A DNA stretch of 64,000 nucleotides from an uncultured Ectothiorhodospiraceae bacterium (GCA_947258515.1 CAMYIO010000033.1:609-64608), one strand, 5' to 3'; shown: positions 22,278-41,474, numbered from the stretch's first letter. Numbers and translations are program-made. The notes: generated from the sequence alone by a model not told the origin.

Positions 22278-22302
22278 AGCCCCGAGACTGCGAACCATCA
22301 TT

Positions 22303-22375
22303 GTAGGAGCGCCGTCCCCGGCGCGATTGTTCTTTGTCTTGCCCCCGAATCGCGGCGAGGACGCCGCTCCTACAA
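22303..22375. repeat. REP-like palindromic element (type A, copy 1)
   Basis: tgtaggagcgccgtccccggcgcgattg -spacer- aatcgcggcgaggacgccgctcctaca, an imperfect inverted repeat. Near-identical copies lie at 34870, 41423 and 62526. Confidence 0.6.
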
Positions 22376-22407
22376 TATAATTATTACAATAGCTTACGTT
22401 ATATTCC

Positions 22408-23521
22408 TCAGAACCATATTGAAACGAAAAGCTGCGCCACGTCGGCACCGAATTTGTACAGCGGTTCATCTCCCGCCGGTGCGCCGCTGTCGCGCAGATC
22501 GCGAAAATCATGGTAGTTGAACCAGATGTGATCATAGGACAGGTTAATACTGCCACGGTCTATCCAGCGCCAGCCATTCTGTACGAAATCATAACTCAAC
22601 GAAAACCCGAGCGTGTTGCTGTCAAAAGAGCTGAGTTCCTTGTCGCGCGCGAGAAAGTTCTGTGCATCCCTGCGCGGGAACAGGTCACTGTAAAAGTCGG
22701 CTGAATTCTGCGTGTAATAGCGGTAGTGAGCTTCAAATAACCAGCCACCGCTCAGCGGGTGTATGTAGGCAAGCTTGACGTTATGCGCCCGGATTCCCCA
22801 GGTGTCATCAAAGATCCGGTACTCTGCATAGGTTGATGCACGATAAGGTAAATAATAAAGTCCGCGCACGGCAACTGCGTTGCTGGTGCGTGTATTCGGG
22901 TAGACCTCCGGCTGATAACTGTAACCCGGAGAACTCGCAGTATCGATGTAACGCACCGAACGGTAGGGATTATTCAAATATGCTGATCACCTGCGTGAGC
23001 CCGACTGTATAATTCTGCCGGTCCACATCTTCGGAGAAGGCAGGGTCGTTATTGTTGCCAACGACATCCCAGCCACGTGCATATCCCAGTGTCACGGTGG
23101 TCATGTTGCCAAACATGTCCATGCTGATACCAAAACTGGCGGTATTGGCCGAGTAATCACTCTCCTCACTGTTGGTATAGGAGACACTCATAATCGAATT
23201 GCCATGCAGGTAGTCTGCACCCAGCGAGTATTCAGTTCGCTCTTCCGTGTAGGGACTGGCCGTGGTGACGACATCAATGGATGCGCTGCTGATGGAATCC
23301 ACGTAGTAGTTACCGCTGAGCGCAAAATTCTGCCCGACGTTTTTCAGAACCAGCACCGATGGCCCGGTGATCTCGACCCCGCCGCCATCATAGGAGTGAT
23401 ACAGCGCATCGGCACGGTCATCCGGCAACACGCCGGCCACGGTCGGCAAGCCGCTGCACAGCAGGCACAGACCCGCGAGACAGGTTTTGCGGATACTAGT
23501 TACAGCCACAGCCCCCACCAT
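22408..23521 (-). pseudogene. DUF3570-like outer-membrane protein, split by a frameshift near 22970
   Basis: Two abutting 189-aa ORFs. The N-terminal half carries the signal peptide (LAGLCLLCSGLPTVAG). The C-terminal half ends ...FVSIWF, the terminal-Phe signature of outer-membrane barrels. Together they make ~378 aa, typical of DUF3570. It sits next to the DUF4266/TlpA partners. Confidence 0.5.
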
Positions 23522-23732
23522 TACCACCTTCAGCACCACGCGCCGCCTCGCGTGCCTGGTAGACGTGAATCATGTAGGAGGATGACACCGGGTTGCGTTC
23601 GAAACGCATGATTTCATCCGCAAGGTATTCACGCTCATAGGGCTTTACCCAGGGTTCGACCATACTGCAAGCCGGCAGGTACAACACACCCAGAACGAGA
23701 ATAACTGCTTTGCGGATAGTCACTGCCGTCAT
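23496..23732 (-). CDS. DUF4266-like small lipoprotein
   Basis: 78 aa, lipobox LPAC, C-terminal Gly-rich ...GGNGGGCGCN tail. Conserved neighbour of DUF3570 and TlpA genes. Confidence 0.55.
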   Translation of the reverse strand: MTAVTIRKAVILVLGVLYLPACSMVEPWVKPYEREYLADEIMRFERNPVSSSYMIHVYQAREAARGAEGGNGGGCGCN

Positions 23733-24241
23733 TCCCTGATCAGGTCACGAACCTGTTGCTGGTAGACAGTCTCAAGTCCGGGTTTATAGCCCTTGTGCAG
23801 GTAGCGCATATTGCCATCGCGATCCACCAGCACGGTGCTGGGCATGGCAACCACGTCATATTGCTTGCTGACGACGCTGTCGCTGTCAAATACCACGGGA
23901 AAACTCACCGGCAGTTCCTCCAGCAGTTTTTTCGCCTTGCTCGAATCAGCCTCGACGTTGACACCCAGCACGGTGAATCCCAGTGCACGGTACTTGTCAT
24001 GCAGTTCGCTGAGTACCGGCATCTCCTGGCGGCAGGGGCCGCACCACGAGGCCCAGAAATTGATCAGCACAACCTCGCCGCGGTATTCACTGAGCCTGAG
24101 ATTTTCACCCGTGTTGCTCTTCAGCGTAAAGTCCGGTGCACCCGACTGCTTCATGCCGGCATATACAGCGGATGTCGCCATGATCACCGCAGCGGCCATG
24201 CCGAGCCATGATTTCATGTAATGTGCTAACTTGTTTTCCAT
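23729..24241 (-). CDS. TlpA-family periplasmic thiol:disulfide oxidoreductase
   Basis: Signal peptide and thioredoxin fold with WASWCGPC active site. Stop/start overlap with the downstream lipoprotein gene. Confidence 0.8.
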   Translation of the reverse strand: MENKLAHYMKSWLGMAAAVIMATSAVYAGMKQSGAPDFTLKSNTGENLRLSEYRGEVVLINFWASWCGPCRQEMPVLSELHDKYRALGFTVLGVNVEADSSKAKKLLEELPVSFPVVFDSDSVVSKQYDVVAMPSTVLVDRDGNMRYLHKGYKPGLETVYQQQVRDLIRE

Positions 24242-24253
24242 AATCGACTCCTG

Positions 24254-24922
24254 TTAAAAGAAGAAACTGATACCGGCGGTACCTTCCAGGTTATGTGTTG
24301 TTTTATCCTTTCCGAGCAGGTCGGATTTGAAAATGTGGTCGCGGAAGTCTAGATGCAGCGCAACCCAGTCATTCACCAGGAACCGGTAGCCGGCGCCGAC
24401 GTTGACAGTGAAATGGCTGTCATCCGCAAACTCTGTATTTCCAACGCCGGCGATCAGGTACAGGGCACTGTTAAAGGCGTGACCCTTGCCGATAAATGCC
24501 TCACCCGGCAGGATGTTGTACCCCAGCGAGAGATTGTAGTAAGTCAGTTTCCGCTGACTGTCCGTCAGCACCCGGGCACCACCACTGAGCGTCTCGTAAC
24601 TGGTGTCGCCTGCCTTTGTCCGGCCGATAGCGGCCTCGGTAAAGAAGTCCTCGGTAATGTGGTAGGCGCCGCGCGCTCCATAGACCACGTTAGTGCCGAA
24701 GTCCTCGATACTCATGACACCGACAAAAGCACCGACCTCGAAGTCCTCACTGTCGATATCAGCTTCGGAAACCGTGCGTCTTTCAAGGTCCGGGCTTATC
24801 ACCGGCGTCGTGTCATCCTGTGGTGCATCATCAACCCGCACCCAGGAGCAACCCGGCAGCAGGCTCATGAAGGCCAGTGCAAGCATTGACCTCAGAAGAA
24901 AAATGCGAAACCTGCTTTCCAT
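24254..24922 (-). CDS. outer-membrane beta-barrel lipoprotein (OmpA/OmpW-like barrel)
   Basis: Lipobox LLPGCSW, amphipathic beta strands, C-terminal ...GISFFF. Confidence 0.6.
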   Translation of the reverse strand: MESRFRIFLLRSMLALAFMSLLPGCSWVRVDDAPQDDTTPVISPDLERRTVSEADIDSEDFEVGAFVGVMSIEDFGTNVVYGARGAYHITEDFFTEAAIGRTKAGDTSYETLSGGARVLTDSQRKLTYYNLSLGYNILPGEAFIGKGHAFNSALYLIAGVGNTEFADDSHFTVNVGAGYRFLVNDWVALHLDFRDHIFKSDLLGKDKTTHNLEGTAGISFFF

Positions 24923-25665
24923 TCGTTTATCTCCTGGTTGTCGTCCTTATCCTGAAAAATGACGCTGTTCCTGTATTCGGCACGCAGCAAGAATCGACGC
25001 GTCAGATAGCAGCGGATACCCACGCCGACACTGCCGATCTGCTCGGTACGATCCAGCTCATCGACCAGCGTAACGTTCGGGTCGGTATAGATAATCCCTG
25101 TCCCCAGAGAAAAGAAAGGCGACAGACGCCACTCCGGAAACGGATGCGCGAGCAGACTGACGCGACCAACAACCGAATCCGAATAATTCCCGAACACCTG
25201 TGATACAGACAATTCTGCAGAGAAATTCGCCGTCATGGCATATCCTGCATAAGCCGTGATCATATCCGCACCTTCAAAGTCTCCGGCCAGCACCCCGGCT
25301 TCCCAGCGTCTTTTCGAGAAATCCCCGATATTTGCCTCCGCGAAGCGGGTCTGGTCACCCGCGGGGGTTAACGTCTGTTCCATTTCCGCACGCCTGACCC
25401 AGCCTTCCTTGCCTTTCCCGGTACGTACCCTGAACCAGTCGGTACGCCGCTTCAGTACGCTAATGGTCTCGCCACGATCAACCACGTGGAATACCGGGTA
25501 ACCGCGGCCGGGGCCGGTATGCATTTCCAGGTATGGCGCAGCAACAACAACCTCGACCAGTTGTTCTTCAGAAAATGCCTGTCTGGCCAGCAGGGCCTGC
25601 AACAGCAGTACAATCACGAGCACGCGTAACTGCGAAAATCCCCGGGCAACAGTGCACGCGTGCAT
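24892..25665 (-). CDS. SH3-domain + outer-membrane beta-barrel protein
   Basis: Signal peptide, a bacterial SH3-like segment (YPVFHVVDRGETISVLKRRTDWFRVRTGKGKEGWV), then a barrel ending ...GFAFFF. Confidence 0.55.
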   Translation of the reverse strand: MHACTVARGFSQLRVLVIVLLLQALLARQAFSEEQLVEVVVAAPYLEMHTGPGRGYPVFHVVDRGETISVLKRRTDWFRVRTGKGKEGWVRRAEMEQTLTPAGDQTRFAEANIGDFSKRRWEAGVLAGDFEGADMITAYAGYAMTANFSAELSVSQVFGNYSDSVVGRVSLLAHPFPEWRLSPFFSLGTGIIYTDPNVTLVDELDRTEQIGSVGVGIRCYLTRRFLLRAEYRNSVIFQDKDDNQEINEWKAGFAFFF

Positions 25666-25675
25666 ACAGTCGCTA

Positions 25676-28252
25676 TCAGTTACCGGGTACTGCGAATGGA
25701 TCGTTGTAATACTGCGCACCGATATCCAGCCATTCCGAGACAAGTCTCAGTTCGGCTGCATCAAGACGATTCTCGTGACTGCCTCCACTGTTGAACAGAT
25801 CAAAAAAACGCCAGCTTGCACGTGCACCGGCGCTCGACATGGCAGGCGCAACCGGTACACGCACCTCGGTCGGCAATCCCGTCTCGGGATCGATCGGACC
25901 GGGTACCAGGATGTCCTGCAGGCCGTTATCACCGAGTTCCTCGGCGAAGTCAGCGAACAGTAGCTCCCGATAGGAGTGGAAATGCGCGGCCTGTTCTGCG
26001 GACACACCATCGGTCAGATCGAGCTGTGCATCCGGTACCCTGTCCATGTCGGCTGCATCGAGGCTGGCATGGCATTCTGTGCAGGTGTTTACGCCACGGT
26101 CACGATTCCACAGGGGGTGTATATGCTGCTCATAATTGATCACTGTCCTGCATTGACTGTCCCAGTCCCCCTGGCAGACGGATGAGGCCGGTGCAGCGGT
26201 TGACAGGTCCGCATACAGCAGGCTGGTTGACGCATCCTTGAGGCGAGCGGCAGCCATTTCGTCGGTCCAGAGGTCGTGATATATCAGGTCAGTCGAGGGT
26301 TGCAGGGAGAGGACATCAAACCGCGCCAGGGTTTCCGCCATGGTTTCTCCGTATATCGCGGGCAAGGCAGGGTCTGTATTCGGGAATTCCATAGCGGTTG
26401 CCGGGGCACCGGCATGCACAGACTGCGCCCCCTGCGGGTGACCGTGGGGGCTGCCACCGGCATGATTATGGCAACCGTTACAGTGGACTGTTTCCCCGGC
26501 ACGCACTTGCAACCAGTTCTGGTGACGGTCGCCGATGCGCCGTCCGTCCCTGTCCACCACGCTGATGGCCAGTGGCACATCGGCCGGTACCTTGACCCGC
26601 ACGGACCCGTCCGGCTGTACCGGTGTGTAGCCGATGATCTCGCGCATCAGTTGCTGGCTACTGCGTCCAAAGGCAGTAAACGGCAGTGTGGCCACGTCGT
26701 TGTCTGGCATGGCGACGGCCTTGACGATGCGCAGGAAACGGGCAGGGCGATCAGCGGCCAGGGACTCTTTCGGGTCGGCGAGCGTGGCGATATCCGGTGC
26801 CGCGGTATCCACACCGTCGATGTCATAGACACTGCGGATATTGAGTATGCCGACACCCTCGTCAATCCACTGCAGGTCCAGCTCGATACCGGGCTGCTTG
26901 TCGAAAATGATGGATGGCAGGGCGCGTGGGGCGGTTGCCACCACATTGGTATAGGTAATGCCTTCCTGCGGGACAACCACCGGTAACTGAGTATCGGTAG
27001 ACATGTCATAGAGAAATATTCCGTACAGTGGATCGGCCTCGAGTGCATCAGGACTTTCAATCCGGCCGGCGGTGCAGGGGACAATCACGGTATCCTCCAG
27101 CAAACGGCATTCGCTCCAGCTGACCAGTACACGATCCGTACCATCCAGCAGCGGCCAGGCGCTACGGAAACGGCCACCGGGAGAGACACTGTTGTCTGTA
27201 CGGACATCATTGATCAGCAGAGCGGACTGCGCCGGTCCGGACAGTATCCCCTGGTTGTCCATTGTAGGTTCGGTGTTATCGATATAGTTTTCGATATCCA
27301 GTGAAATCAGCTCGCCGCCACGGTAGGACCCTGTAAATGGCAGCAGCAGGGCGAGCAGCCGGCCATTTTCCAATTCCCGCGGTTGCAGGAAATGCACATC
27401 AGCGTTATTGGTGCCGGTGTCATGGCTATGGGAACCGTACAGAAGCTGCAAGCCGGTCCCGTCCGGATACATCTTGTAGAGGCTTATGGCATTACGACTA
27501 CCCATGTCATCCCAGCGGCTGAAAACCACTTCTCCGGAAGAAAGCACCATCGGATCAAGATCGTGGCTCTGGTTAAACGAGACCTGCCTGATATCACTAC
27601 CGTCTGCATTCATGACATGTAACACCATGGCATGTTCGTTGAGGTTTTCATCCAGCGCGGTAAATTGTGGTTTGCCTTCGTCCAGCAGCACGGCACGCGA
27701 TGTTCTTTGACGTGACGAGGAGAATATTATGCGGCCATCCGGCAGGTAGTGTGGCGCCACATCCTGCCCGGCGGCAGCGGTAATGTCCGACGGGATGACG
27801 CGCTGCAGCTCATCGGCCTCAATCAGGTATTCCCAGATATCCCACTTCGGCTGGTCAGCCGGGGCGAGGCCGGGTATCTCGGGCGCACGCATGGCGAAGA
27901 GCAGCCGCTCGCCGTCATAGGACACTTCAACATCCTTCACATCACCCAGGCCACCGGTGAAGGATGCGGTTACATTGCGTTGCCGTGCACCCGGAGAAGC
28001 CAGATCACGGTAAAACAGGTCACCACCGGCATTGAACGTTAATGCCTCGCGAATATCCGGCTGCGTCAACACATTATTCATATCAACGATCAGAGGACGA
28101 CGCACAAAGGCAATACCGAAATCCTCGACCAGTGGATCAGGGTCCTGACCATCACCCCCGCCACATGCCTGCAATGCAACAGACAACACGCAGGCAACGC
28201 ACATGGCTGCAATCTTCCTGACGCCCTGAAAACACGCGTTGATTAGAGTCAT
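25676..28252 (-). CDS. lipoprotein with PD40/TolB-like beta-propeller repeats and two c-type heme motifs
   Basis: Lipobox LQAC. Propeller-like repeats (DGSDIRQVSF..., LYKMYPDGTGLQ...) plus HCNGCH and CTECH CXXCH motifs. The ORF opens at a TTG (28342), but an internal ATG gives a proper lipoprotein signal. Confidence 0.6.
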   Translation of the reverse strand: MTLINACFQGVRKIAAMCVACVLSVALQACGGGDGQDPDPLVEDFGIAFVRRPLIVDMNNVLTQPDIREALTFNAGGDLFYRDLASPGARQRNVTASFTGGLGDVKDVEVSYDGERLLFAMRAPEIPGLAPADQPKWDIWEYLIEADELQRVIPSDITAAAGQDVAPHYLPDGRIIFSSSRQRTSRAVLLDEGKPQFTALDENLNEHAMVLHVMNADGSDIRQVSFNQSHDLDPMVLSSGEVVFSRWDDMGSRNAISLYKMYPDGTGLQLLYGSHSHDTGTNNADVHFLQPRELENGRLLALLLPFTGSYRGGELISLDIENYIDNTEPTMDNQGILSGPAQSALLINDVRTDNSVSPGGRFRSAWPLLDGTDRVLVSWSECRLLEDTVIVPCTAGRIESPDALEADPLYGIFLYDMSTDTQLPVVVPQEGITYTNVVATAPRALPSIIFDKQPGIELDLQWIDEGVGILNIRSVYDIDGVDTAAPDIATLADPKESLAADRPARFLRIVKAVAMPDNDVATLPFTAFGRSSQQLMREIIGYTPVQPDGSVRVKVPADVPLAISVVDRDGRRIGDRHQNWLQVRAGETVHCNGCHNHAGGSPHGHPQGAQSVHAGAPATAMEFPNTDPALPAIYGETMAETLARFDVLSLQPSTDLIYHDLWTDEMAAARLKDASTSLLYADLSTAAPASSVCQGDWDSQCRTVINYEQHIHPLWNRDRGVNTCTECHASLDAADMDRVPDAQLDLTDGVSAEQAAHFHSYRELLFADFAEELGDNGLQDILVPGPIDPETGLPTEVRVPVAPAMSSAGARASWRFFDLFNSGGSHENRLDAAELRLVSEWLDIGAQYYNDPFAVPGN

Positions 28253-28510
28253 AGTAGATCCTGATGCACATATATAAGTACGCACATCCGACGTCGTTTT
28301 CCTTTGGTGATCCCTGCATCCGTAATCACACACAAAAATCAATGTGATTCAGTTCCCGCCTGTTACATAACCCGTGTCGCAGTTGAACTATAGGACAGTC
28401 GAGGAATCCTGTTCCGCGAACAGAATCACAGAAAGCCACGCCTACAAACATCAGGATTGTCAGCCACGGAGATAACGACAATTAAAAACCAATGATTGCA
28501 GGAAGTGATT

Positions 28511-29704
28511 ATGCGTCTGTCAAAACAGTCTGATTACACAACGTCTAACCACCGGATCCGCAGGGCAATCATTGTGTGCATCCTGATGTTGTTCTCTACG
28601 ACTGCTTTTGCCGATGCACTCGAACGCCGTCAGGCGAAACGCCTGCATGACAGGCTGGCCGGTATTCCGCCAGAGGAATCGGTACTTGATGACATGGAAG
28701 CCGCGTTAATGGCCGGCAATGATCTGGATGCAGCCCTTATCGCAATGGACAACAAGGCCTTCTATAACATTACCCTGAAAAATTTTGCGGCCCCATGGAG
28801 CAACCGTGAAAGGACGCTGTTTGCACCGTTGAATGACTACACCGCCACCGTCATCGGCATGATTCGCGATAAAACACCCTTCAACGAACTGCTGTCAGCC
28901 AACCTGGTATATGTCGGCGATCCGGTATTGGGACTGCCTGACTACTCAATGACCGACAACGATCATTACCAGGCGCTGGAGGACCAGGGTATTGACCTGA
29001 AGACTCACCTGCAGGCCGTCACACAGACTTCTGTCACCGACCTGCCGGTAAATGCAACGGCGGGCGTGATGACGACGCGTGCTGCAGCCGAGGCTTTTTT
29101 CGTGGCGGGAACAAACCGCGCCATGTTTCGCTTCACCTTGCTGAATCATCTCTGCAACGACATGGAGCAGGTCAAGGACAGCAGTTATTCACCTGCCCGC
29201 ATTCGCCAGGATGTCTCACGCAGTCCCGGCGGTGACAGTCGCCTGTTCCTCAACTCCTGCATCGGTTGCCACAACGGCATGGACCCGATGGCTCAGGCGT
29301 TCGCCTACTACAACTTCGATGAAACCACTCAGCGTATCCAGTACACACCCGGTTCGGTACAGCCCAAATACCATATCAATGCCGACACCTTCAAGTACGG
29401 CTACATCACAGCGGATGACCGCTGGGACAATTACTGGCGCAGTGGTCAAAACGCATTGCTGGGCTGGGACAGCAACCTGACCGGTTCCGGTTCCGGTGCC
29501 AAATCAATGGGCAGAGAACTTGCCAACAGCGAGGCATTCGCCCGTTGCCAGGTCAAGAAGGCCTTCAAGACGGTTTGTTTGCGTGATCCGGGCAACGCGG
29601 CTGACCGTAACCAGGTGGACATCACCACTGCCAGTTTCAAGGCGGACAACTACAACATGAAGACAGCGTTTGCAGAAGTTGCCGTCTACTGCATGGGCGA
29701 ATAA
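28511..29704 (+). CDS. secreted protein with one CXXCH heme motif (PSCyt/DUF1588-like?)
   Basis: Signal peptide and CIGCHNGMDP motif. AGGAAG Shine-Dalgarno. Translationally coupled to the next gene (4-nt gap). Confidence 0.55.
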   Translation: MRLSKQSDYTTSNHRIRRAIIVCILMLFSTTAFADALERRQAKRLHDRLAGIPPEESVLDDMEAALMAGNDLDAALIAMDNKAFYNITLKNFAAPWSNRERTLFAPLNDYTATVIGMIRDKTPFNELLSANLVYVGDPVLGLPDYSMTDNDHYQALEDQGIDLKTHLQAVTQTSVTDLPVNATAGVMTTRAAAEAFFVAGTNRAMFRFTLLNHLCNDMEQVKDSSYSPARIRQDVSRSPGGDSRLFLNSCIGCHNGMDPMAQAFAYYNFDETTQRIQYTPGSVQPKYHINADTFKYGYITADDRWDNYWRSGQNALLGWDSNLTGSGSGAKSMGRELANSEAFARCQVKKAFKTVCLRDPGNAADRNQVDITTASFKADNYNMKTAFAEVAVYCMGE

Positions 29705-29707
29705 CCA

Positions 29708-32200
29708 ATGAACTACATCATAAATTCCATCATGCATCTCGTCCTGCATCGATACGGGGCAGTGTTGCTTGCCAGCGCCATGCTTTCCGCCTGTGGCGGT
29801 GAAAGCACGACTGAAAATCCGCAGACATTTACCACCATGACGTCCAGTTATTCCGGCCCGGCAGCAACGACGGCCGATGTACAGGCATTCAGGCTGAATG
29901 TCTGGGAGAACCTCAATAGACAGAATCGTTGTGGTGCCTGCCACGGTAGCGGCGGTCAGTCACCCACATTCGTACGCATGGATGACGTCAACCTCGCCTA
30001 TGCCGAGGCGAACAGCATCGTTGACCTCGCCAACCCGGCCAGTTCACGCATGGTAACCAAGGTAGCAGGCGGTCATAACTGCTGGCTGGACAGTGACAGT
30101 GCCTGTGGTGATGTCATCACGGCCTATATCACCGCCTGGGCCGGTGGGGTCGCCGGTGGCGGAAATATTATTGAACTCGTTGCACCCCCGCTGCGAGACC
30201 CGGGTGACAGCAAAAGTTTTCCCGACGACTCGGGCCTGTTCGCCACTACCGTGCATCCCTTGCTAACGGCTCATTGTGCCAGCTGCCATGTGGATTCGGC
30301 CGCCAATGCACAGTCTCCCTTCTTTGCGGACAGTGACGCGGACACAGCCTACGAGGCCGCCAAACCCAGGATTGACCTGGATAATCCCGCGAACTCACGT
30401 TTCGTGCTGCGGCTGCGTGAAGAATTTCATAATTGCTGGACATCTAACTGCCTGAATGACGCTGACACCATGGAAGCAGCCATCGCCGCCTTCGCTGCAC
30501 AAATCCCGGTGACGCAAATCGATTCACAGCTTGTCACCAGCAAGGCCCTGACATTACCCGACGGTATCGTTGCCAGTGGTGGTAGCCGCCATGAACAGAA
30601 TGTCATCGCGCTGTACCAGTTTAAAACCGGGCAGGGAAACACCGCGTTCGACACCAGTGGCGTCGAACCGGGCATGCACCTGACACTGAGCGGCAACACC
30701 GGCTGGGTGGGTGGCTGGGGACTCGATATCACCAATGGCAGGGCGCAGGCCTCGACGACAACCAGCCGCAAGCTGCATGAACTGATTACCGCCACCGGTG
30801 AATACACCATTGAAGCCTGGGTGGTAGCAGCCAACGTCACCCAGGAAGGTCCGGCACGCATTATCAGTTACTCAGCCGGAACCACTGTGCGTAATTTCAC
30901 CCTCGGGCAAACGCAGTACAACTACAATTTCCTGCAGCGCAACACCAACACGGACCCCAATGGTGATCCCGCACTGTCTACTGCTGATGCCGATGAAGAC
31001 CTGCAGGCGACGCAACAGCATGTCGTGGCAACCTATGACCCGGTAAGGGGCCGCCGTATTTACGTGAATGGCATCTTTACCGGTGACAGTGACCCGGTTG
31101 CCGGCGGCAGCCTGATTGACTGGGATGACAGTTTTGCCTTCCTGCTGGGTAACGAGGTCTCCGGTGACCGCCAGTGGCAGGGCCGGTTGCGGCTGGTAGC
31201 CATCCATAACCGTGTCCTCACCAATGCACAAATCATGCAGAACTTTGAAGCAGGTGTTGGTGAGAAATTCTTTTTACTGTTTAACGTCAGTGATCATAGC
31301 GGCATTGCGGACTCCTATGTCATGTTACAGGTCAGCCAGTTCGACAACTACAGCTATCTGTTCAATGACCCGTTATTCATCATCCTCGATGCCGATGCCA
31401 CGCCAGACAATATCCCGGTGGCGGGCATGCGCATCGGAATCAACGGCAAGGAGGCGAGCGTCGGTCAGGCCTATCAGCATCTGGATACCACTCTCAGCAG
31501 TGCACAGTATCAACCCGGCATGGGCCAGAAACTGTCCGTACTGGGGACCATTATTGCACTGGAAAAAGGTCCTGAATCAGACGAATTCTTTCTAACCTTC
31601 GAGGTGTTTGGAAACAGTACCCATGTTGTACTTGAGCCACAGCCACTGCAGCCCGGCACACCGCCCGATCTGCCGGAAGCCGCAGATGTCGGACTGCGTA
31701 ATTTTGACGAGATCAATGCCACTATGGCCACCATTACCCGCGTCAGTCCTGAACAGGAAGATGTAGACGATGTATTCGAAACCGTCAGGCAACAGCTGCC
31801 CACCGTTGAAAATATCGAGGGGTTTCTCTCGGCACACCAGATGGCAGTCTCGCAAATGGCCATCGAATACTGCAACGCGCTGGTAGATAACAACGGCAAC
31901 GTGCTGCGCACGGACTATTTTCCGCAGTTTGATTTCAACGAGACGGCAGACAATGCCTTTAATACAGCCGCCCAACGTGACAAGGTCATCCTGCCACTGC
32001 TCAACAGGGTAATGAATACCGGGTTAACAACACAGCCCGACCCCGCACAGGTCATCAGCGAACTTGACGACCTGATACTCATCCTGACTGCCTGCGCCAA
32101 TGGTCCTTCGCCGGGTTGCGCGACAGTGACACGTACGCGGGAAGTCGTGAAGGCGACCTGTGCCGCCATGCTTGGCAGTGCCGCCATGCTGATTCAATAG
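29708..32200 (+). CDS. lipoprotein with two repeated CXXCH-containing domains and a LamG/concanavalin-like domain
   Basis: Lipobox LSAC. A ~100-aa module occurs twice (CGACHG...SPTF...NPASSRMV...HNCW and CASCHV...SPFF...NPANSRFV...HNCW), followed by a LamG-like region. Confidence 0.6.
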   Translation: MNYIINSIMHLVLHRYGAVLLASAMLSACGGESTTENPQTFTTMTSSYSGPAATTADVQAFRLNVWENLNRQNRCGACHGSGGQSPTFVRMDDVNLAYAEANSIVDLANPASSRMVTKVAGGHNCWLDSDSACGDVITAYITAWAGGVAGGGNIIELVAPPLRDPGDSKSFPDDSGLFATTVHPLLTAHCASCHVDSAANAQSPFFADSDADTAYEAAKPRIDLDNPANSRFVLRLREEFHNCWTSNCLNDADTMEAAIAAFAAQIPVTQIDSQLVTSKALTLPDGIVASGGSRHEQNVIALYQFKTGQGNTAFDTSGVEPGMHLTLSGNTGWVGGWGLDITNGRAQASTTTSRKLHELITATGEYTIEAWVVAANVTQEGPARIISYSAGTTVRNFTLGQTQYNYNFLQRNTNTDPNGDPALSTADADEDLQATQQHVVATYDPVRGRRIYVNGIFTGDSDPVAGGSLIDWDDSFAFLLGNEVSGDRQWQGRLRLVAIHNRVLTNAQIMQNFEAGVGEKFFLLFNVSDHSGIADSYVMLQVSQFDNYSYLFNDPLFIILDADATPDNIPVAGMRIGINGKEASVGQAYQHLDTTLSSAQYQPGMGQKLSVLGTIIALEKGPESDEFFLTFEVFGNSTHVVLEPQPLQPGTPPDLPEAADVGLRNFDEINATMATITRVSPEQEDVDDVFETVRQQLPTVENIEGFLSAHQMAVSQMAIEYCNALVDNNGNVLRTDYFPQFDFNETADNAFNTAAQRDKVILPLLNRVMNTGLTTQPDPAQVISELDDLILILTACANGPSPGCATVTRTREVVKATCAAMLGSAAMLIQ

Positions 32201-32220
32201 AACACTACCGGGAGTATTGC

Positions 32221-33819
32221 ATGGCCAGAAAATCCAACCACCGTCGACTGAATGAACCCCTGCGCCTGAATGATCATGGCCGCCCGATCAGCCGCCGTGA
32301 CTTGCTGGGGCAGGGGCTTCTTTCAGGGCTTGGCCTCGTGACCGCACCGACGTTCTTCGGCCTGTTCGCCAATCCGCGCAGGGCCGCCGCGGACCTGTCC
32401 CCGGATCTGGAGGCGTTGAAGACCAGCTGCGGCATCAAGTCCCTCGGCGCCGGTAAAATTCCGTTTATCTGTTTTGACCTGGCCGGGGGTGCGAATATCG
32501 CAGGCTCCAACGTACTGGTCGGGAAACAGGACGGGCAACTGGATTCCCTGAGCACCGCCGGTTACAGCAAACTGGGGTTACCGGGTGACATGACACCGGA
32601 CTCGATAAATCCGCTGACAGGCAACAGTTTCATTAACACGGACTTCGGGCTCGGCTTTCATGCCAGCAGTGCGATGCTGCAGGGCATTCAGGAAAAGGCG
32701 CTGGGCCGCAGCACTGAAATCAATGGTGCCGTGATCCCCGCGCGCTCGGATAACGACACCGCTAACAACCCGCACAATCCCATGTATGGCATCGCGCGTG
32801 CCGGTGCAGATGGCAGCCTGTTGTCTCTGATCGGCTCCAGGAGTTCCGACTCCGGCGGAAACTCCATGGCACCGGCCATGCTGATTGATCCCTCGATCCG
32901 TCCCACCAAGGTTGACCGTCCGTCCGATGTCACGGGCATGGTGGATACCGGCCAGTTGATCGGCGTGCTCAGCCAGGATGACGCGGTTGCCGTGATGGAG
33001 TCCATCGAACGCATCAGCCGGATGAAACTCGACCAGGTCGATACCCGGGTCACGGCGGATGCCATAGTCAAGGACCTGGTGCAATGTGGCTATGTGAAGG
33101 CGGCAGACATTGCCGACCGTTTTGGTGACCCGACCACGCTTGATCCGGCGCTCGATCCTGACATTGTCGGGCCTGGCGGGATATTCGATCAGACCGAATT
33201 CAACAATGACAGCGAGTTTCGCAAAACCGCTTCCGTCATGAAAATGGTCATCAATGGTTTTGCCGGTGCCGGAACAATCACCCTGGGTGGCTATGATTAC
33301 CACACCGGCGATCGCGCCAGCGGTGAATTGCGCGATCTGCGTGCCGGGCGCTGCATCGGCGCCTGTCTGGAGTATGCTGCACGCGCCAACAATGGCAACG
33401 GTGTACCTTTGATGGTCTACGTATTCAGTGATGGTTCCGTATTCAGCAACGGCATGACAGATGACACCCAGACGGGTGGCGGCAAGGGCGTCTGGACCGG
33501 TGATAACTCTTCAACCGCCGCGTCATTCTTTCTTGTCTACAATCCAGGATCAAGGCCACAATTGCTCGGCGCAGACATGGTTGAACGGGCCGTACACCAG
33601 CAGCTGGGGCATTTCCGCAGTGACGGTTCTGTAGAAACCAATGCCACACCGGCCGCCAACCAGGTCAACCTGCTGGTCGAGACCGTGATACTGAATTACA
33701 TGGTACTGCATGGCGAGCAGGCTAACTTCACGAGCCTGTTCCCGAACCATGGCCTCGGTAATGCTGCACTCATGGACAAACTGACCGCGTTCAATCCCAT
33801 TGTTTCCGGGACGATATAG
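32221..33819 (+). CDS. twin-arginine (TAT) signal protein, DUF1552/DUF1501-like partner of the CXXCH proteins
   Basis: Tat motif SRRDLLGQGLLSGLGL. GGGAG Shine-Dalgarno before ATG 32221. The longer ORF upstream (32116) overlaps the previous gene. Confidence 0.55.
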   Translation: MARKSNHRRLNEPLRLNDHGRPISRRDLLGQGLLSGLGLVTAPTFFGLFANPRRAAADLSPDLEALKTSCGIKSLGAGKIPFICFDLAGGANIAGSNVLVGKQDGQLDSLSTAGYSKLGLPGDMTPDSINPLTGNSFINTDFGLGFHASSAMLQGIQEKALGRSTEINGAVIPARSDNDTANNPHNPMYGIARAGADGSLLSLIGSRSSDSGGNSMAPAMLIDPSIRPTKVDRPSDVTGMVDTGQLIGVLSQDDAVAVMESIERISRMKLDQVDTRVTADAIVKDLVQCGYVKAADIADRFGDPTTLDPALDPDIVGPGGIFDQTEFNNDSEFRKTASVMKMVINGFAGAGTITLGGYDYHTGDRASGELRDLRAGRCIGACLEYAARANNGNGVPLMVYVFSDGSVFSNGMTDDTQTGGGKGVWTGDNSSTAASFFLVYNPGSRPQLLGADMVERAVHQQLGHFRSDGSVETNATPAANQVNLLVETVILNYMVLHGEQANFTSLFPNHGLGNAALMDKLTAFNPIVSGTI

Positions 33820-33824
33820 GCATC

Positions 33825-34853
33825 ATGACCCACCCGCACAGTCTCATGCCATCCAGGCCCCACACGATTAACAATCGGGCACGTCATGTACGCCTTTTAA
33901 TACTGTCCATACTGATGCTATTGCCACTCGATGCCAGCGCCGGCTGGATCCGCCAGGAAGCCGCCATCATGGGCACGGCCATCAATGTTGAACTCTGGCA
34001 TGAAGACGCTGCACAGGGCAGGGCCCTGACACAGGCGGTACTGGACGAAATGCATCGCATCGACAATTTGATGAGTACCTACAAGCCTGACAGCGAGCTG
34101 TCCTTAATCAATGCCAATGCCGCCGACGGACCGGTTACCGTCAGCACGGAACTGTTGTCTCTGATCATACGCGCGCTGGATTACTCTGTAATTACGGCTG
34201 GCGCCTTTGATATCACCTATGCCAGTGCAGGACAGTACTATGATTACCGGAACGCTAAAAAACCCAGCGACAGGCAACTCGAGCAGGCATTGCCTGCCAT
34301 CAATTACCGTCACGTAAAGATTGACCCGCAAAGCTCCAGCATTGAATTCATGCGCCAGGGTGTACGCATAGACCTTGGCGGCATAGCAAAGGGCTATGCC
34401 GTTGATCGCAGCATGGAAATACTGCGAAGTGGCGGCGTCGAAAATGCCATTGTCAGTGCCGGTGGTGATTCGCGCGTCATCGGTAAGCGCCGGGACAGGC
34501 CCTGGAATGTCGGCATCCGCCATCCTCGCAACAAGGACAGTATCGTCTCGATGATTCCGCTGGAAAATTCAGCCATCTCCACCTCCGGTGATTATGAACG
34601 CTATTTTGAAGAGGGCGGTGTGCGCTACCATCACATCCTCAACCCGGGCACGGGCACTTCGTCTCACGAGGTACACAGTTCCAGTATTATCGGGGCAGTG
34701 GCGACGGATACGGATGCACTGTCTACCAGTGTGTTTGTACTCGGCGTCAATGACGGTCTGCAGTTAATCAATTCCATACCTGATACCGAGGCCGTCATTA
34801 TCGACAACCAGGGACGTATGCATTATTCCACCGGTCTCGCACAGCTCCAGTAA
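33825..34853 (+). CDS. apbE: FAD:protein FMN transferase (ApbE family)
   Basis: Signal peptide and ApbE motifs (FDITYASAGQYYDY, IDLGGIAKGYAVD, ISTSGDYERYFE...RYHHILNP). Confidence 0.85.
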   Translation: MTHPHSLMPSRPHTINNRARHVRLLILSILMLLPLDASAGWIRQEAAIMGTAINVELWHEDAAQGRALTQAVLDEMHRIDNLMSTYKPDSELSLINANAADGPVTVSTELLSLIIRALDYSVITAGAFDITYASAGQYYDYRNAKKPSDRQLEQALPAINYRHVKIDPQSSSIEFMRQGVRIDLGGIAKGYAVDRSMEILRSGGVENAIVSAGGDSRVIGKRRDRPWNVGIRHPRNKDSIVSMIPLENSAISTSGDYERYFEEGGVRYHHILNPGTGTSSHEVHSSSIIGAVATDTDALSTSVFVLGVNDGLQLINSIPDTEAVIIDNQGRMHYSTGLAQLQ

Positions 34854-34869
34854 CATTTTTTGAATTCAC

Positions 34870-34939
34870 ATGTAGGAGCGCCGTCCCCGGCGCGATTGTT
34901 TTTTCATGATTCGAATCGCGGCGAGGACGCCGCTCCTAC
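34870..34939. repeat. REP-like palindromic element (type A, copy 2)
   Basis: tgtaggagcgccgtccccggcgcgattg ... aatcgcggcgaggacgccgctcctaca, the same element as at 22303. Confidence 0.6.
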
Positions 34940-35083
34940 AGACGTGTCTTTGTAGCACAGGAACGGACCGCTCCCGCGATCAAGAACTGTGATGCTCCGC
35001 GCATCCTCTTGATGCGAAATTCAGCACACTTGTAACAGGCTGCCAGTCGGCAGTCGCTGCTGTGTTTACGGAGGCCGCATGTC

Positions 35084-35638
35084 ATGTCCCTGAAATGCCA
35101 TTTTCCTGTTCCGTTCCGTTTCTGGATAGTACTGCTGATATTCTGCACTACCACAGTCGCCGCAGAGCCGGCCGCACAAACAGCCGGCACGACGGCAAGT
35201 CTCGATGAAGAAATCCAGTCCCTGAAGCAAGACGTGCTGGCGCTCAACCGGGAACTGTTCATCCTTGAAGAAGAACTGCTGTACCCTGCAAACACCCAGG
35301 TCGCGGTGTTTCTGTCTCTCGACATCGGCGAGTTTTTCAGCCTTGACTCGGTACAACTGAAGATCGACGACAATGTGGTCAGCAACTATCTCTATACGCA
35401 ACGCGAGGTAGACGCCCTGCACCAGGGCGGTGTCCAGCGCCTCTACATGGGCAACCTTAAGGCCGGTGAACACGAGCTGGTTGCCATCTTCACGGGCCAG
35501 GGACCCAATGGCCGGGAATACCGTCGTGGCGCCAACCATATCATCACCAAGACACTCGGGGCCCGATTCATTGAACTGAAAATTGTCGATAACGACAGCA
35601 GCGAGCAGCCTGATTTCAGCATCAGGGAATGGGAATAA
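35084..35638 (+). CDS. periplasmic coiled-coil protein (first gene of the Exb/TPR cluster)
   Basis: Signal anchor, coiled-coil segment (EEIQSLKQDVLALNRELFILEEELL), then a beta-rich domain. GGAGG Shine-Dalgarno. Confidence 0.5.
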   Translation: MSLKCHFPVPFRFWIVLLIFCTTTVAAEPAAQTAGTTASLDEEIQSLKQDVLALNRELFILEEELLYPANTQVAVFLSLDIGEFFSLDSVQLKIDDNVVSNYLYTQREVDALHQGGVQRLYMGNLKAGEHELVAIFTGQGPNGREYRRGANHIITKTLGARFIELKIVDNDSSEQPDFSIREWE

Positions 35639-37515
35639 GCAGCATGCCGGTTTTCACCTGCTCACGGCTGTTGCTGCTGTGTCTGATCGTGATCACACCC
35701 TCACTTGACGCAGCGGATGCACCGCCGTCAGCGGTCAAGGACCTGCAATACGGCGAGGTTCTCTACCATTATTTCCAGCAGGACTACTTCAACAGCATCG
35801 TGCGCCTGCAGATTGCAAGGCAGCAGCAACGCCTGCCAAACCACGCGGCAGAGGCCGAACTGATGCTGGGTGGTCTCGACCTGTCCTATGGCCTCAGGGA
35901 CGAGGCCAACCACATTTTTCAACGCCTGCTCAGCGAGGAGACCAGCGATGTCAGCACGCGCAACCGTGCCTGGTTCTATCTTGCGAAGATCTCCTGGCAG
36001 CGCGGTGATATAAACGCGGCACTGCAGGCCATAGAACGTGTGCAGGGAACGATGACAGCCGCAACCCGCACAGCCACAGTCAACCTGCACAGCCTGCTGT
36101 TGCTGCAACAGGGTAACAACCAGGCGGCCATTAAGCTGTTGCAGGATGCACGCAGCGGCAAACGCTGGTCACCGTTCCTGAACTACAACCTCGGTATTGC
36201 CCTGATCCGGGAACAGCAACAGCAGCTGGGCGCGAAACAACTTGATCATATCGGTGATATCAATGGCCGCAACGAGGAGCTGCGCCTGCTGCGTGACAAG
36301 GCCAACCTGGCACTCGGCTACAGTTACCTGCAAGACGGCAATCCGGAAATGGCCCGCAAGACACTGGAGCGTGTACGTCTCGAAGGCCCGCTGTCGAACA
36401 GGGCATTGCTCGGCACCGGCTGGGCAGATACCGAAAGTGAAAACTATGCAGCGGCACTGGTGCCGTGGCTGGAGTTGAGCAGCCGTGACAGCACCGATCC
36501 GGCGGTACAGGAATCATTGCTGGCCATTCCCTATGCCATGACAAAGATGAACCTGCATGGACGCGCTGTAGAGCATTACAATGATGGCATCAGGCAGTTG
36601 ATCGAGGAACGACAGAAACTGGATCAATCCATCAGCGCCATCCACCAGGGCAGACTGCTGGATCTGCTGCAACAACACAACCTCGGCGCCGGCAACGGCT
36701 GGATGCAACAACTGCACCTCGACTCCGAGGCACCTGCGCTGCGCTACCAGCTCGCACTGATGTCATCGCACGACTTTCAGGAAGCTGTGAAGAATTACCG
36801 TGATCTCCTTGTATTACAAGTTAATCTATCCAGCTGGGAGAGCGCTATCGCCGCCTACGACGATATGCTCGCCGGCCGCCAGGCACGCTTTGAGACACAC
36901 CGCCCCGCAGCACAACAGGTACTGCAGGGCACGCGCCTGCAGCAACTGCAACAGCGCCGTGCCGCACTGGCCGAGAATCTTGCCCGCATCGGCATAATGG
37001 ACGATGCCGCCGCACTGGCGACCCCGGAAGAGGCCCGGCAGTGGCATCAACTGGCAACCATCGCTGAGCGACTGGCGCAGCTACCGGATAATCCCGATAC
37101 CGCGACATTGCACGACAAGCAGCAGCGCCTGCGTGGCCTGCTCATCTGGCAATTTCAGGAAGACTACAAACCACGCCTGTGGCAAGCCAGGAGGCAACTC
37201 GCCGAACTGGACACCCTGCTCAACGAGTCACAGCACGGCATCGACAGCCTGCAGCAGGCCAAAATCGATGCCCCGTCCGGTTTTGGCGATTTCAAACGGC
37301 GTATCGCCGCTAACAAGTCAACCATCGAGAAACTGTCAGCACAGACGGATACCACCCTGCTTGCACAAGGCAAGCAACTGGAGCATCTCGCCATCAATGA
37401 ACTGGAGCGTCAACAACAGCGTGTCGATGCCTATATCATCCAGGCACGTTTCGCGCTTGCGCAAACCTATGACAACGCCCTGCAGCAACCGGCAGTGGAG
37501 GGGAGCGTACAGTGA
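35629..37515 (+). CDS. periplasmic TPR + coiled-coil protein
   Basis: Signal peptide, N-terminal TPRs and a long C-terminal coiled-coil. Overlaps the next gene's start. Confidence 0.6.
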   Translation: MGISSMPVFTCSRLLLLCLIVITPSLDAADAPPSAVKDLQYGEVLYHYFQQDYFNSIVRLQIARQQQRLPNHAAEAELMLGGLDLSYGLRDEANHIFQRLLSEETSDVSTRNRAWFYLAKISWQRGDINAALQAIERVQGTMTAATRTATVNLHSLLLLQQGNNQAAIKLLQDARSGKRWSPFLNYNLGIALIREQQQQLGAKQLDHIGDINGRNEELRLLRDKANLALGYSYLQDGNPEMARKTLERVRLEGPLSNRALLGTGWADTESENYAAALVPWLELSSRDSTDPAVQESLLAIPYAMTKMNLHGRAVEHYNDGIRQLIEERQKLDQSISAIHQGRLLDLLQQHNLGAGNGWMQQLHLDSEAPALRYQLALMSSHDFQEAVKNYRDLLVLQVNLSSWESAIAAYDDMLAGRQARFETHRPAAQQVLQGTRLQQLQQRRAALAENLARIGIMDDAAALATPEEARQWHQLATIAERLAQLPDNPDTATLHDKQQRLRGLLIWQFQEDYKPRLWQARRQLAELDTLLNESQHGIDSLQQAKIDAPSGFGDFKRRIAANKSTIEKLSAQTDTTLLAQGKQLEHLAINELERQQQRVDAYIIQARFALAQTYDNALQQPAVEGSVQ

Positions 37516-38276
37516 AGCCCGTACTGCCTGTCATGGTGATGATGGCCGCCCTGTCAAGCGCCTGCTCAGTGCTGCACGGGGACAATGAGCCTACCATCGC
37601 GAGCCTCGGCAAACGCCCGGTAAAACTCGAGGACACACCGGTGTCAGCCAGTGAAGTGCAGGCGATCTCGGCCTACCGGTCCTTTCTTGACAGCGGTGAT
37701 GAATCGGATTCACGCCCGCACGCGATGCGCCGCATTGCCGACCTGAACCTGGAAAAAGAGGAACTGCCGCAAGCCGGGCAGACTACCCCGGACACCCCGT
37801 CGCTGCAGCCAATAGAGGCGCGCGAATCCATCGAACTGTACCAGAGCGTACTGTCACTCTATCCACAGCGCGCGGACAACGACTCGGTGCTCTATCAACT
37901 CGCACGCGCCTACGAGATGGATGGCCAGCCGCGACAATCGCTCGACACGCTGGCAACCCTCGTACAACACTACCCGCAGAGTCAATATGTGCTGGAAGCA
38001 CAGTTCAGGCGTGGCGAGATCCTGTTCGAGCAACGCGACTACGATAACGCAGAGCAGGCCTACCGCGCCGTGGTCAGCAGTGGCCCGGATAATTCGTTCT
38101 ACCGGCAATCGCTATACAAGAGCGGCTGGTGTTTTTTCAAGCTGTCAGAGCTGGATGAATCACTGGATGCCTTCATGGCACTCCTCGATCTGGAGCTGCA
38201 GGATACCGAAGCGGGTATTGCGCAACTCGATCAGCTGAGCCGTCCGCGGCGCGAACTGGCGCGAACTGGTGGATGA
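37512..38276 (+). CDS. TPR lipoprotein, 5' fragment of a split ~935-aa TPR gene (GltD/AgmU-like)
   Basis: Lipobox LSSACS. The frame ends 8 nt after the tandem 10-bp duplication gcgcgaactg/gcgcgaactg at 38249-38268. Removing one copy fuses it in frame to the next ORF. Confidence 0.6.
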   Translation: MKPVLPVMVMMAALSSACSVLHGDNEPTIASLGKRPVKLEDTPVSASEVQAISAYRSFLDSGDESDSRPHAMRRIADLNLEKEELPQAGQTTPDTPSLQPIEARESIELYQSVLSLYPQRADNDSVLYQLARAYEMDGQPRQSLDTLATLVQHYPQSQYVLEAQFRRGEILFEQRDYDNAEQAYRAVVSSGPDNSFYRQSLYKSGWCFFKLSELDESLDAFMALLDLELQDTEAGIAQLDQLSRPRRELARTGG

Positions 38277-40320: not shown

Positions 40321-40455
40321 AGCACCCTACCTCCATAGCTGCATTCCCTCTTTCCCAGGAGAGGGCCACGACTGCAGGGATGCAGGAGGTAGGGCACCAA
40401 AAGCAGGCGCTTTAGCGACGCATGGCGCAGTTGCCGAGGGAGAGGGGAAAGACAG

Positions 40456-41064: not shown

Positions 41065-41339
41065 TGCGTACAACGTTCCACAGGCTGTTGCCTGCCATAC
41101 TGCTGAGCACGGCCTTGCAGGCACACGCCGAGGACACACTGACGCTCGATGGTGCCACCATTGTCGGTAACCGTGAATTACCCAAGGCACTGCACATCGT
41201 GCCCTGGAAATCGGCTGAAGCCGGTGAACTGGCCGGCCGTCCCATGAACAGCCTGGTCGATGAAATCCTCGCACCCGTAGACCGTGACGTGTTCCTCAGG
41301 GAACTCGAGTACTACGAAGCAGTTCACGGTATTGAATGA
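41061..41339 (+). CDS. small secreted hypothetical protein
   Basis: ATGATG overlap with the upstream stop. Signal peptide MMRTTFHRLLPAILLSTALQAHA. Confidence 0.45.
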   Translation: MMRTTFHRLLPAILLSTALQAHAEDTLTLDGATIVGNRELPKALHIVPWKSAEAGELAGRPMNSLVDEILAPVDRDVFLRELEYYEAVHGIE

Positions 41340-41422
41340 ACACATCAGTAATCTTTACCCGGTAGTTTTGAAAATCCCGGACTGAGAGCTGGTTTTGCCA
41401 CTGCTAAGGTTTTGGCTAAATC

Positions 41423-41474
41423 CTGCAGGAGCGCCGTCCCCGGCGCGAATCGCGGCGAGACGCCGCTCCTGCAG
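41423..41474. repeat. REP-like palindromic element (type A, copy 3, no spacer)
   Basis: ctgcaggagcgccgtccccggcgcgaatcgcggcgagacgccgctcctgcag. Confidence 0.55.

Follow-up and report, generated by a model that had tools for sequence, protein, structure and literature searches.

The closest described counterpart of the locus analysed here is a class of bacterial gene clusters that encode ApbE, the flavin adenine dinucleotide (FAD):protein flavin mononucleotide (FMN) transferase, together with a DUF3570 protein, a thioredoxin-like protein and a DUF4266 protein with a C-terminal CXC. Meheust et al. 2021 (PMC8238504) describe 543 such clusters, 227 with DsbD and 316 without, and thus adjacent DsbD is not obligatory; they also report by experiment that the DUF3570 protein of Chlorobium luteolum is flavinylated at two sites by its cognate ApbE. 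The published recognition motif of ApbE is DxxxGA[T/S] (PMC10722498). A second relevant system is the alpha subunit of hydrazine synthase (HzsA), whose heme alpha-I has Tyr591 as its proximal ligand, four residues beyond the zinc-bound His587 (PMC12607021); a broad HzsA-like family with other substrates is already suspected (PMC10732223), and divergent homologues are sometimes named 'HzsA' (PMC11828985). A third is the gammaproteobacterial Agl-Glt 'core complex' of unassigned function (Luciano et al. 2011; PMC3169522). We compared these systems with a gene cluster in a 64,000-nt stretch of DNA, the window, from an uncultured Ectothiorhodospiraceae bacterium (GCA_947258515.1, CAMYIO010000033.1:609-64608). 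With moderate confidence we interpret this cluster as one multi-module redox system of the periplasm and outer membrane, and as a variant of the DUF3570 system.

The cluster consists of two divergent operons. The minus-strand operon reads HzsA-like 858–SH3/OMP–OMP222–TlpA–DUF4266–DUF3570 and the plus-strand operon p402–p830–Tat532–ApbE, with spacings of -44 to +20 nt between the genes of both. In window coordinates, the features are:

22408..23539, minus strand: DUF3570 gene, disrupted; two fragments match Pfam DUF3570 (PF12094, cut-off 25) at 81.5 bits (C-terminal) and 27.2 bits (N-terminal)
23496..23732, minus strand: DUF4266 lipoprotein with lipobox LPAC|S and a GGGCGCN C-terminus that holds a CXC; Pfam DUF4266, 81 bits
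23729..24241, minus strand: TlpA/ResA-type periplasmic thiol-disulfide oxidoreductase with WCGPC; AhpC-TSA and Redoxin, ~106 bits; ResA and TlpA models match
24254..24922, minus strand: OMP222, an OMP_myx_plus-type barrel lipoprotein of 222 aa that ends ...ISFFF; TIGR04565, 185 bits against a cut-off of 60, and OMP_b-brl
24892..25665, minus strand: SH3_3 protein with a C-terminal outer-membrane beta-barrel (SH3/OMP); SH3_3, 43 bits; OMP_b-brl, 30 bits
25676..28252, minus strand: HzsA-like lipoprotein of 858 aa; HZS_alpha (PF18582), 52.9 bits; heme motifs C591NGCH and C724TECH
28253..28510, no strand: divergent intergenic region, presumed from its position to hold the promoters
28511..29704, plus strand: p402 (~397 aa), secreted mono-heme protein with C255IGCH and a PSD2/DUF1585-like C-terminus; PSD2, 20.4 bits, sub-threshold
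29708..32200, plus strand: p830, lipoprotein with two cytochrome-c-like modules, a LamG domain and a C-terminal helical domain; Laminin_G_3, 71.6 bits
32221..33819, plus strand: Tat532, exported by the twin-arginine (Tat) route, with a predicted alkaline-phosphatase-superfamily core and no Pfam family
33825..34853, plus strand: ApbE with a signal peptide; Pfam ApbE, 284 bits over the full length; NF007774 also matches

The genes are tightly packed: the TlpA and DUF4266 genes overlap by 4 nt, and ApbE starts 5 nt past Tat532. We counted the SH3/OMP protein as ~257 aa, from Met27 of an open reading frame (ORF) that extends to 25743; its orthologues in two of the related loci described below, L001 and L005, have 256-257 aa. 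An exact sequence look-up of the window ApbE returned no record. Almost all of the gene inventory drawn up in a first-pass annotation of this DNA stands, with Pfam or NCBIfam matches for the DUF4266 protein with its GGGCGCN tail and for the TlpA/Redoxin protein, with two outer-membrane barrels (OMP_b-brl in both, SH3_3 in one), with two CXXCH motifs and HZS_alpha in the 858-aa heme lipoprotein, and with a Tat-signal protein and ApbE both present. DUF3570 belongs to the family to which it had been assigned, but it is not a single gene in this genome, being split by a 47-bp deletion. The annotation had listed three secreted CXXCH proteins besides the 858-aa one; the window cluster encodes three c-heme proteins in total (858, 402 and 830 aa), with five CXXCH motifs. 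Among the domains it had suggested looking for, DUF3570 and DUF4266 were found, DUF1501, DUF1552, DUF2271 and FMN_bind were not, and its guess of PSCyt domains did not hold at Pfam thresholds; PSD2 in p402 stayed below its cut-off (20.4 against 25.8 bits).

The flavin genes of the cluster share the main features of the published DUF3570 clusters: the four gene families occur together, the DUF4266 protein has its C-terminal CXC, ApbE carries an export signal, a thioredoxin-like gene lies nearby, and two adjacent candidate Ser acceptor sites are located near the N-terminus of DUF3570. They differ from the published clusters in that the genes are spread over two operons with three c-heme proteins, and in the company of two extra outer-membrane barrels and a Tat-exported protein of predicted alkaline-phosphatase fold. 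In addition, a TlpA/Redoxin protein takes the place of the PF13899 thioredoxin-like protein, the glycine of the recognition motif is replaced (SSAS/TTAS instead of [ST]GA[ST]), and the DUF3570 gene of the window genome is frameshifted. The active-site Cys pair of TlpA is retained in 35 of 35 sequences, and 70 of 71 DUF4266 orthologues end in CGCN. The C-terminal residues of DUF3570 are ...VSIWF and those of the two remaining barrels ...FFF, endings that read as typical of outer-membrane beta-barrels.

We searched 18 local proteins for potential flavinylation sites. The strict motif [ST]GA[ST] was absent from all of them, as the first-pass annotation had noted for the neighbours of ApbE, and the window DUF3570 matches neither this pattern nor DxxxGA[T/S]. 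A relaxed pattern, D-x-x-[ST]-x-A-[ST], occurred exactly twice among the 18 proteins, both times in DUF3570 and side by side, as DSISSAS (residues 81-87) and DVVTTAS (residues 89-95). The first of these candidate sites hardly varies, and reads SSAS in 49 of 56 pattern-matched orthologues (TSAS in 4, SGAS in 1) and in most other readable orthologues as well, and the second is variable (TTAS, TQAS, SGAS, TQGS); some orthologues have glycine at one or the other site (SGAS or TGAS). The SSAS motif is specific to this subfamily and suggests that the subfamily is specialised. DUF3570 is thus the predicted ApbE target in this locus, and flavinylation of the subfamily is likely. That the flavinylation target was unclear is an outdated view, as DUF3570 is a published class of ApbE substrate, with two modified sites; nor is the DUF3570/DUF4266 module functionally uncharacterised, as had been stated, for PMC8238504 describes both the cluster and the ApbE reaction. 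DUF2271 and FMN_bind proteins were considered as ApbE targets and rejected, as no such domains were found.

In the largest protein of the minus-strand operon, a TolB-like beta-propeller at the N-terminus is followed by an HZS_alpha domain in the middle, and there are two c-heme motifs. The protein aligns with hydrazine synthase alpha (5c2v_A) in four colinear weak segments, and the top Foldseek match of its model, which has a predicted local distance difference test score (pLDDT) of 50, was again 5c2v_A (E 1.4e-18, against 1e-10 for TolB). The three-domain fold that accompanies the HZS_alpha domain comes from this model. Both CXXCH motifs, as well as H577 and H603, are retained in 82 of 82 sequences of the family, with a heme pattern of C.GCH.......HG. 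The propeller, middle and C-terminal domains follow one another as in HzsA (5C2V), which likewise has two c-hemes and gives the best fold match; we regard the 858-aa protein as a remote full-length relative of hydrazine synthase alpha. The two differ at the heme alpha-I site. The position four residues after His595 is Gly599, there is no Tyr within CNGCHNHAGGSPHG, and the Tyr(His+4)/zinc arrangement of HzsA is lacking. With the HzsA equivalog model NF052339 the protein reaches 40.5 bits, where 800 would be required. Among the cluster genes, none resembling HzsB or HzsC was found; the neighbours are SH3/OMP, p402 and others. In comparison with HzsA and with the HzsA-like proteins of non-anammox bacteria (PMC10732223, PMC11828985), the protein described here is a gammaproteobacterial lipoprotein linked to DUF3570; the literature that we searched held no report of an HzsA-like protein in Gammaproteobacteria, or of the linkage to DUF3570.

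Proteins resembling the planctomycete-type PSCyt/PSD cytochromes are known to be paired with Tat-exported DUF1501 or DUF1552 proteins. The first three genes of the plus-strand operon recall such pairs, since a secreted CXXCH/PSD2-like protein (p402) and a LamG heme protein (p830) lie next to a Tat-exported protein. They differ from the planctomycete pairs in that Tat532 is neither DUF1501 nor DUF1552, the PSD2 score of p402 is sub-threshold, and p830 has no PSCyt/PSD match. Among p402 orthologues, 28 of 39 match PSD2 (E < 0.01, best E 6e-6) and one matches PSCyt3; the CXXCH and four further Cys are invariant. The tandem modules of p830 read CGACH...HNCW...C and CASCH...HNCW...C, and LamG is present in 38 of 38 orthologues. 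For Tat532, no Pfam match (DUF1501 and DUF1552 included) was obtained with the window protein, 36 orthologues or 10 distant relatives, and a PDB profile search gave no match; PDB sequence and profile searches found nothing significant for p830 and chance-level matches for p402. Tat532 has a predicted alkaline-phosphatase-like fold, which is common to polymer-modifying enzymes of the EptC, BcsG and LtaS types. Several members of the Tat532 family are named 'general secretion pathway protein GspF' in NCBI records; given Tat export and the predicted fold, the name seems to be an annotation error that has spread from record to record.

We assessed conservation of the cluster by scanning an alignment of the 858-aa family against one genome per species. 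This gave at least 584 matches, of which the best 80 loci, with 47-84% identity to the window in the 858-aa protein, were compared; genes were counted by tblastn with every window protein, and the downstream arm was scored where at least 6 kb of flank was available. In 59 of 60 loci the 858-aa gene has OMP222, DUF4266 and DUF3570 downstream of it, all on its own strand and arranged as in the window. Upstream, among the loci whose flank was long enough, p402 and p830 each hold their place in 58 of 58 and Tat532 in 57 of 58. The cluster order is thus the same in at least 59 sediment Gammaproteobacteria, and all five CXXCH motifs are invariant among orthologues. The only exception is CP070821, which has the 858-aa protein, an SH3 protein, p402 and p830, and lacks DUF3570, DUF4266 and Tat532. 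Carriers include Woeseiaceae, Steroidobacteraceae, Thiodiazotropha symbionts, Sedimenticola, Kangiellaceae and many unclassified metagenome-assembled genomes, as well as a cultured strain, Lentisalinibacter sediminis. Where ApbE is present it takes at least four kinds of position (after Tat532, further upstream, or after DUF3570 on either strand), which fits repeated rearrangement with the linkage kept. All-against-all clustering of the ORFs in these loci yielded mostly antisense artefacts from high-GC genomes, and the additional real neighbours (a methyltransferase-like gene, LemA/DUF2207) were clade-specific.

A scan of the window's divergent intergenic region (28253..28510) for consensus sigma-70 sites found none, and a search for FNR, Fur, NsrR and OxyR boxes in the divergent promoter region of 67 loci gave no consistent motif. 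A sigma-54-type element (TGGCAC-N5-TTGC, at most one mismatch) lies between the operons in 12 of these 67 loci (L019, L031, L034, L063, L066, L069 and others), mainly in a Woeseiaceae-like group and not in the window.

These comparisons strongly support a combined flavin–heme–thiol system of the cell envelope, which the first-pass annotation had proposed and which the tight operons and the retained order (59/60 and 57-58/58 loci) would fit well. The DUF3570 system as such is already known; its conserved heme, barrel and Tat partners were not found described in the literature that we searched. Several points weigh against our interpretation. TlpA is present in the cluster in 42 of 60 loci and missing in ~18 of 60; 21 of 52 loci include ApbE, and the other 31 have none within 10 kb. 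No DsbD domain was found in the window ORFs scanned, an arrangement shared with the 316 published clusters in which DsbD is not adjacent. The motif glycine has given way to Ser or Thr, so that this subfamily is only predicted to be flavinylated. The two AlphaFold models (pLDDT 50 and 55) are of low confidence, because the alignments contained close homologues only. The joining of the heme proteins to DUF3570 is read from conserved linkage, and the substrate and the direction of electron flow are guesses. Finally, the modules can be separated. Besides CP070821 there is locus L086 (7908-11680), where a distant Tat532 relative forms a stand-alone cassette with two other proteins, one p402-like (37% identity) and one of 252 aa whose likeness to p830 is confined to the C-terminal domain; HzsA-like and DUF3570 genes are absent from the vicinity. 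The p402/p830/Tat532 trio is thus an independent module, and the two separations indicate a modular system, yet one whose modules travel together in this lineage group.

If the cluster forms one redox system, it is built from three modules. In module A, the published flavinylation module, periplasmic ApbE would place FMN on the two adjacent Ser sites of DUF3570, a predicted barrel of the outer membrane, whose partners would be the DUF4266 lipoprotein with its CGC tail and a TlpA-type thiol reductant. Module B would be the di-heme HzsA-like propeller lipoprotein with the two outer-membrane barrels, and module C the mono-heme p402, the di-heme LamG protein p830 and the Tat-exported protein of alkaline-phosphatase fold. 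Two-electron thiol input may come from a DsbD or CcdA protein encoded elsewhere, pass through TlpA to the CGC of DUF4266 and from there to the flavins of DUF3570, where two-electron transfer would be converted into one-electron transfer. The flavins could then feed the five c-hemes, ending at the catalytic heme of the HzsA-like protein, which would reduce a small substrate at the outer membrane or in the periplasm.

The DNA to the right of the cluster is relevant to any wider role that this system might have, and contains one feature:

35084..44242, plus strand: module like the Agl-Glt 'core complex' in gene content, with an AgmX/PglI domain

This module comprises p184, tetratricopeptide repeat (TPR) proteins of 628, ~932 (split) and 202 aa (three or four TPR), one TolQ/ExbB-like gene, two TolR/ExbD-like genes and one TonB-like gene. 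The C-terminal AgmX/PglI domain of the TonB-like protein reaches 72.8 bits with NF033768 (myxo_SS_tail), whose cut-off is 40; the GltE, GltG and GltJ models score far below their cut-offs, and NF033768 is the only one to pass. The published core (PMC3169522) likewise combines a single TolQ-like protein with two that are TolR-like, and adds a TonB-like protein bearing the AgmX/PglI domain, TPR proteins and an extra small gene. The likeness is one of gene content, and the link to the redox cluster is one of adjacency, found in 28 of 52 loci and on either side of the cluster. We regard the core-like module as a possible partner of the redox cluster.

Both ends of the cluster are marked by a palindromic element, of the type known as repetitive extragenic palindrome (REP):

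22302..22374, no strand: left REP, imperfectly palindromic; folds into a hairpin of -45 to -49 kcal/mol (z -6.8 to -8.1)
34871..34940, no strand: right REP, directly after the ApbE stop codon; hairpin of -44.9 kcal/mol

The left copy lies between the convergent 3' ends of an EncFtn-like gene and DUF3570. The two copies have the same orientation, are 97% identical over 34 nt of the left arm and 100% over 29 nt of the right arm, and both fold with hairpin z values of -6 to -8. A 16-nt pattern of the REP arm has 7 matches in the window against 1.2 expected, and none of 100 shuffles reached 7; further copies lie away from the cluster ends, as a third variant at 41424-41473 and a half copy at 62526-62541. 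The elements are thus repeated, intergenic and able to form stable hairpins. In being imperfect palindromes of ~70 nt that occur in multiple copies between genes at gene ends, are lineage-specific and vary among strains, they resemble REPs and bacterial interspersed mosaic elements (BIMEs). An Rfam scan of 20-45 kb gave no family, and the sequence was not matched to a described REP family. Members are present in 2 of 85 fetched loci and absent from 83. In L005, which is ~99% identical to the window over the cluster, the left site has a REP with a different inner stem (L005 40-107, against 22302-22374 in the window) and the right site a different REP arrangement (L005 12639-12662, against 34871-34940); the REPs of the two genomes share their outer ends, TGTAGGAGCG...CGCTCCTACA. 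These differences point to rapid turnover or replacement in place. Rarity together with divergence in a 99%-identical genome marks the REPs as fast-evolving intergenic hairpins, and at the operon ends they probably act as terminators or stabilisers of mRNA.

Four other explanations of the locus can be set against a single redox system. The modules could be mere neighbours: the ApbE/DUF3570/DUF4266/TlpA set would act alone, the heme and Tat proteins would be unrelated to it, and the linkage would reflect history or shared regulation. The separations in CP070821 and L086 and the variable presence of ApbE and TlpA speak for this view, as does the description of more than 500 DUF3570 clusters in a paper of which the available part mentions no heme partners (PMC8238504). 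Set against it are the order retained in 59/60 and 57-58/58 loci across 47-84% identity and several families, the sharing of a tight operon by module A and the 858-aa gene, the position of ApbE in the operon of module C, and the specialisation suggested by the subfamily's own SSAS motif. We therefore consider it unlikely, though it deserves to be taken seriously. Alternatively, an Agl-Glt/Nfs-like machine spanning the envelope could have the cluster as its cargo or output. A TolQR-like motor driven by proton motive force, together with a TonB-like GltG and TPR proteins, would then work on the barrels of the outer membrane, a surface polymer would be dealt with by the LamG and alkaline-phosphatase-fold proteins, and the redox components would be accessory. 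The core-complex gene content of the right flank, adjoining in 28 of 52 loci, would agree with such a machine; so would the OMP_myx_plus type of OMP222 and the fold shared with EptC, BcsG and LtaS-type enzymes. However, the core-like module is absent within 10 kb in 24 of 52 loci, the cluster lacks glycosyltransferase or export genes, and the five heme motifs, all of them invariant, speak for redox chemistry as the central function, as do the flavin carrier and the thiol relay; we consider this explanation improbable.

The other two explanations concern the HzsA-like protein and the REP pair. A true hydrazine synthase alpha, with anammox-like nitrogen chemistry carried out by the cluster, would account for the HZS_alpha domain, the colinearity with HzsA and the best fold match, and it would agree with the use of the name 'HzsA' for such divergent homologues (PMC11828985). 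The missing Tyr(His+4) ligand, the NF052339 score of 40.5 against 800 bits and the failure to find HzsB- or HzsC-like genes make this scarcely credible; judged by these residues and scores, the 858-aa protein is not a hydrazine synthase. The last explanation is a horizontally acquired genomic island bounded by the two REP copies; the first-pass annotation had described the region as a REP-bracketed island. The palindromes themselves are real, lie within 1-2 nt of where that annotation had placed them, and form a near-identical pair in the same orientation, 12.57 kb apart and exactly at the ends of both operons. Features of a mobile genomic island were not found. Comparison across related genomes, on syntenic contigs found by looking up homologues of the 858-aa and Tat proteins, showed that both cluster and flanks are syntenic rather than variably present: in relatives at 84%, 67% and 97-100% protein identity, one flank retains the EncFtn-like gene along with hydrolase, TPR and FG-GAP genes, and the opposite flank retains p184 and TPR genes. 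The GC content across the region (0.50-0.61) is similar to that of the flanks, with no compositional step; a tRNA search found none, and no integrase or transposase domain was present in the window ORFs scanned. Moreover, extra REP copies occur elsewhere, the REP family is confined to 2 of 85 loci although nearly all of them have the cluster, and a 99%-identical genome has different REPs at these positions. An acquired island is accordingly very improbable, and the region is a vertically inherited chromosomal supra-operon, not a mobile island.

The cluster and its right-hand neighbour are damaged in this genome. Comparison with L005 identified three frameshifting changes:

22980/22981: 47-bp deletion in DUF3570
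38248: 10-bp tandem duplication, GGCGCGAACT, splitting the gene for the 932-aa TPR protein
41644: 28-bp deletion, splitting the TolQ/ExbB-like gene

The deletion in DUF3570, seen against relatives at 84% and 99% identity, splits the gene into two ORFs of 189 aa each (22970-23539 and 22408-22977); the gene is intact, with 386-392 aa, in L001, L003 and L005. The indels do not lie in homopolymers, and may thus be real inactivating mutations in two adjacent modules, or assembly faults. Because of the frameshifting deletion in DUF3570, the system is probably inactive or decaying in this genome, or else the assembly is wrong.

The remaining flanking genes differ in how widely they accompany the cluster. 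On the left, 13727-20219 contains the genes for three proteins: one of 917 aa that has TPRs and five CXXCH motifs and weakly matches MtrC/MtrF domains II/IV and c554, an FG-GAP/ASPIC protein of 612 aa, and a TPR protein of 558 aa. All three lie beside the cluster only in the window's clade (L001, L003, L007, L011, L041). A secreted 129-aa Gly/Tyr-rich protein with GGYPGYGYGG repeats and a PAAPAA tail, and with no family, is encoded at 20393-20782 on the minus strand. The EncFtn-like (encapsulated-ferritin-like) gene at 21990-22277, on the plus strand and convergent with DUF3570, is retained there in the closest relatives. On the right, the GC content of 44000-47000 falls to 0.48-0.50, against 0.55-0.60 around it, and none of the three ORFs scanned in it (146, 149 and 180 aa) matches Pfam; this segment looks more like acquired DNA than does the region between the REPs.

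A more speculative arrangement would join the two neighbouring systems. The proton-driven TolQR-like motor of the Agl-Glt core, with its TonB-like GltG, might energise or gate a redox complex of the outer membrane that contains flavinylated DUF3570, the CGC lipoprotein DUF4266, barrels of the OMP_myx_plus type and the HzsA-like heme lipoprotein; we think this doubtful at present. If it were true, an ancestor of the myxobacterial gliding and sporulation motor would have served an electron-transfer enzyme of the envelope, and the DUF3570 flavins would be the adaptor between the two-electron thiol relay and the one-electron c-hemes. If the adjacency of the core is functional, it would be the first clue to the ancestral job of the Agl-Glt core.

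Three sets of proteins of unassigned role converge in this cluster: the DUF3570/DUF4266 proteins, the HzsA-like proteins outside anammox bacteria, and the cassettes of PSD-like cytochromes with Tat-exported proteins. For surveys, some of which count HzsA-like proteins as anammox potential, the locus illustrates that a match to PF18582 does not amount to a hydrazine synthase. The carriers include abundant sediment Woeseiaceae and Steroidobacteraceae, the Thiodiazotropha symbionts of lucinid clams and at least one cultured strain. In these bacteria, the conserved linkage offers a testable wiring that would run from thiol to flavin to heme at the outer membrane.

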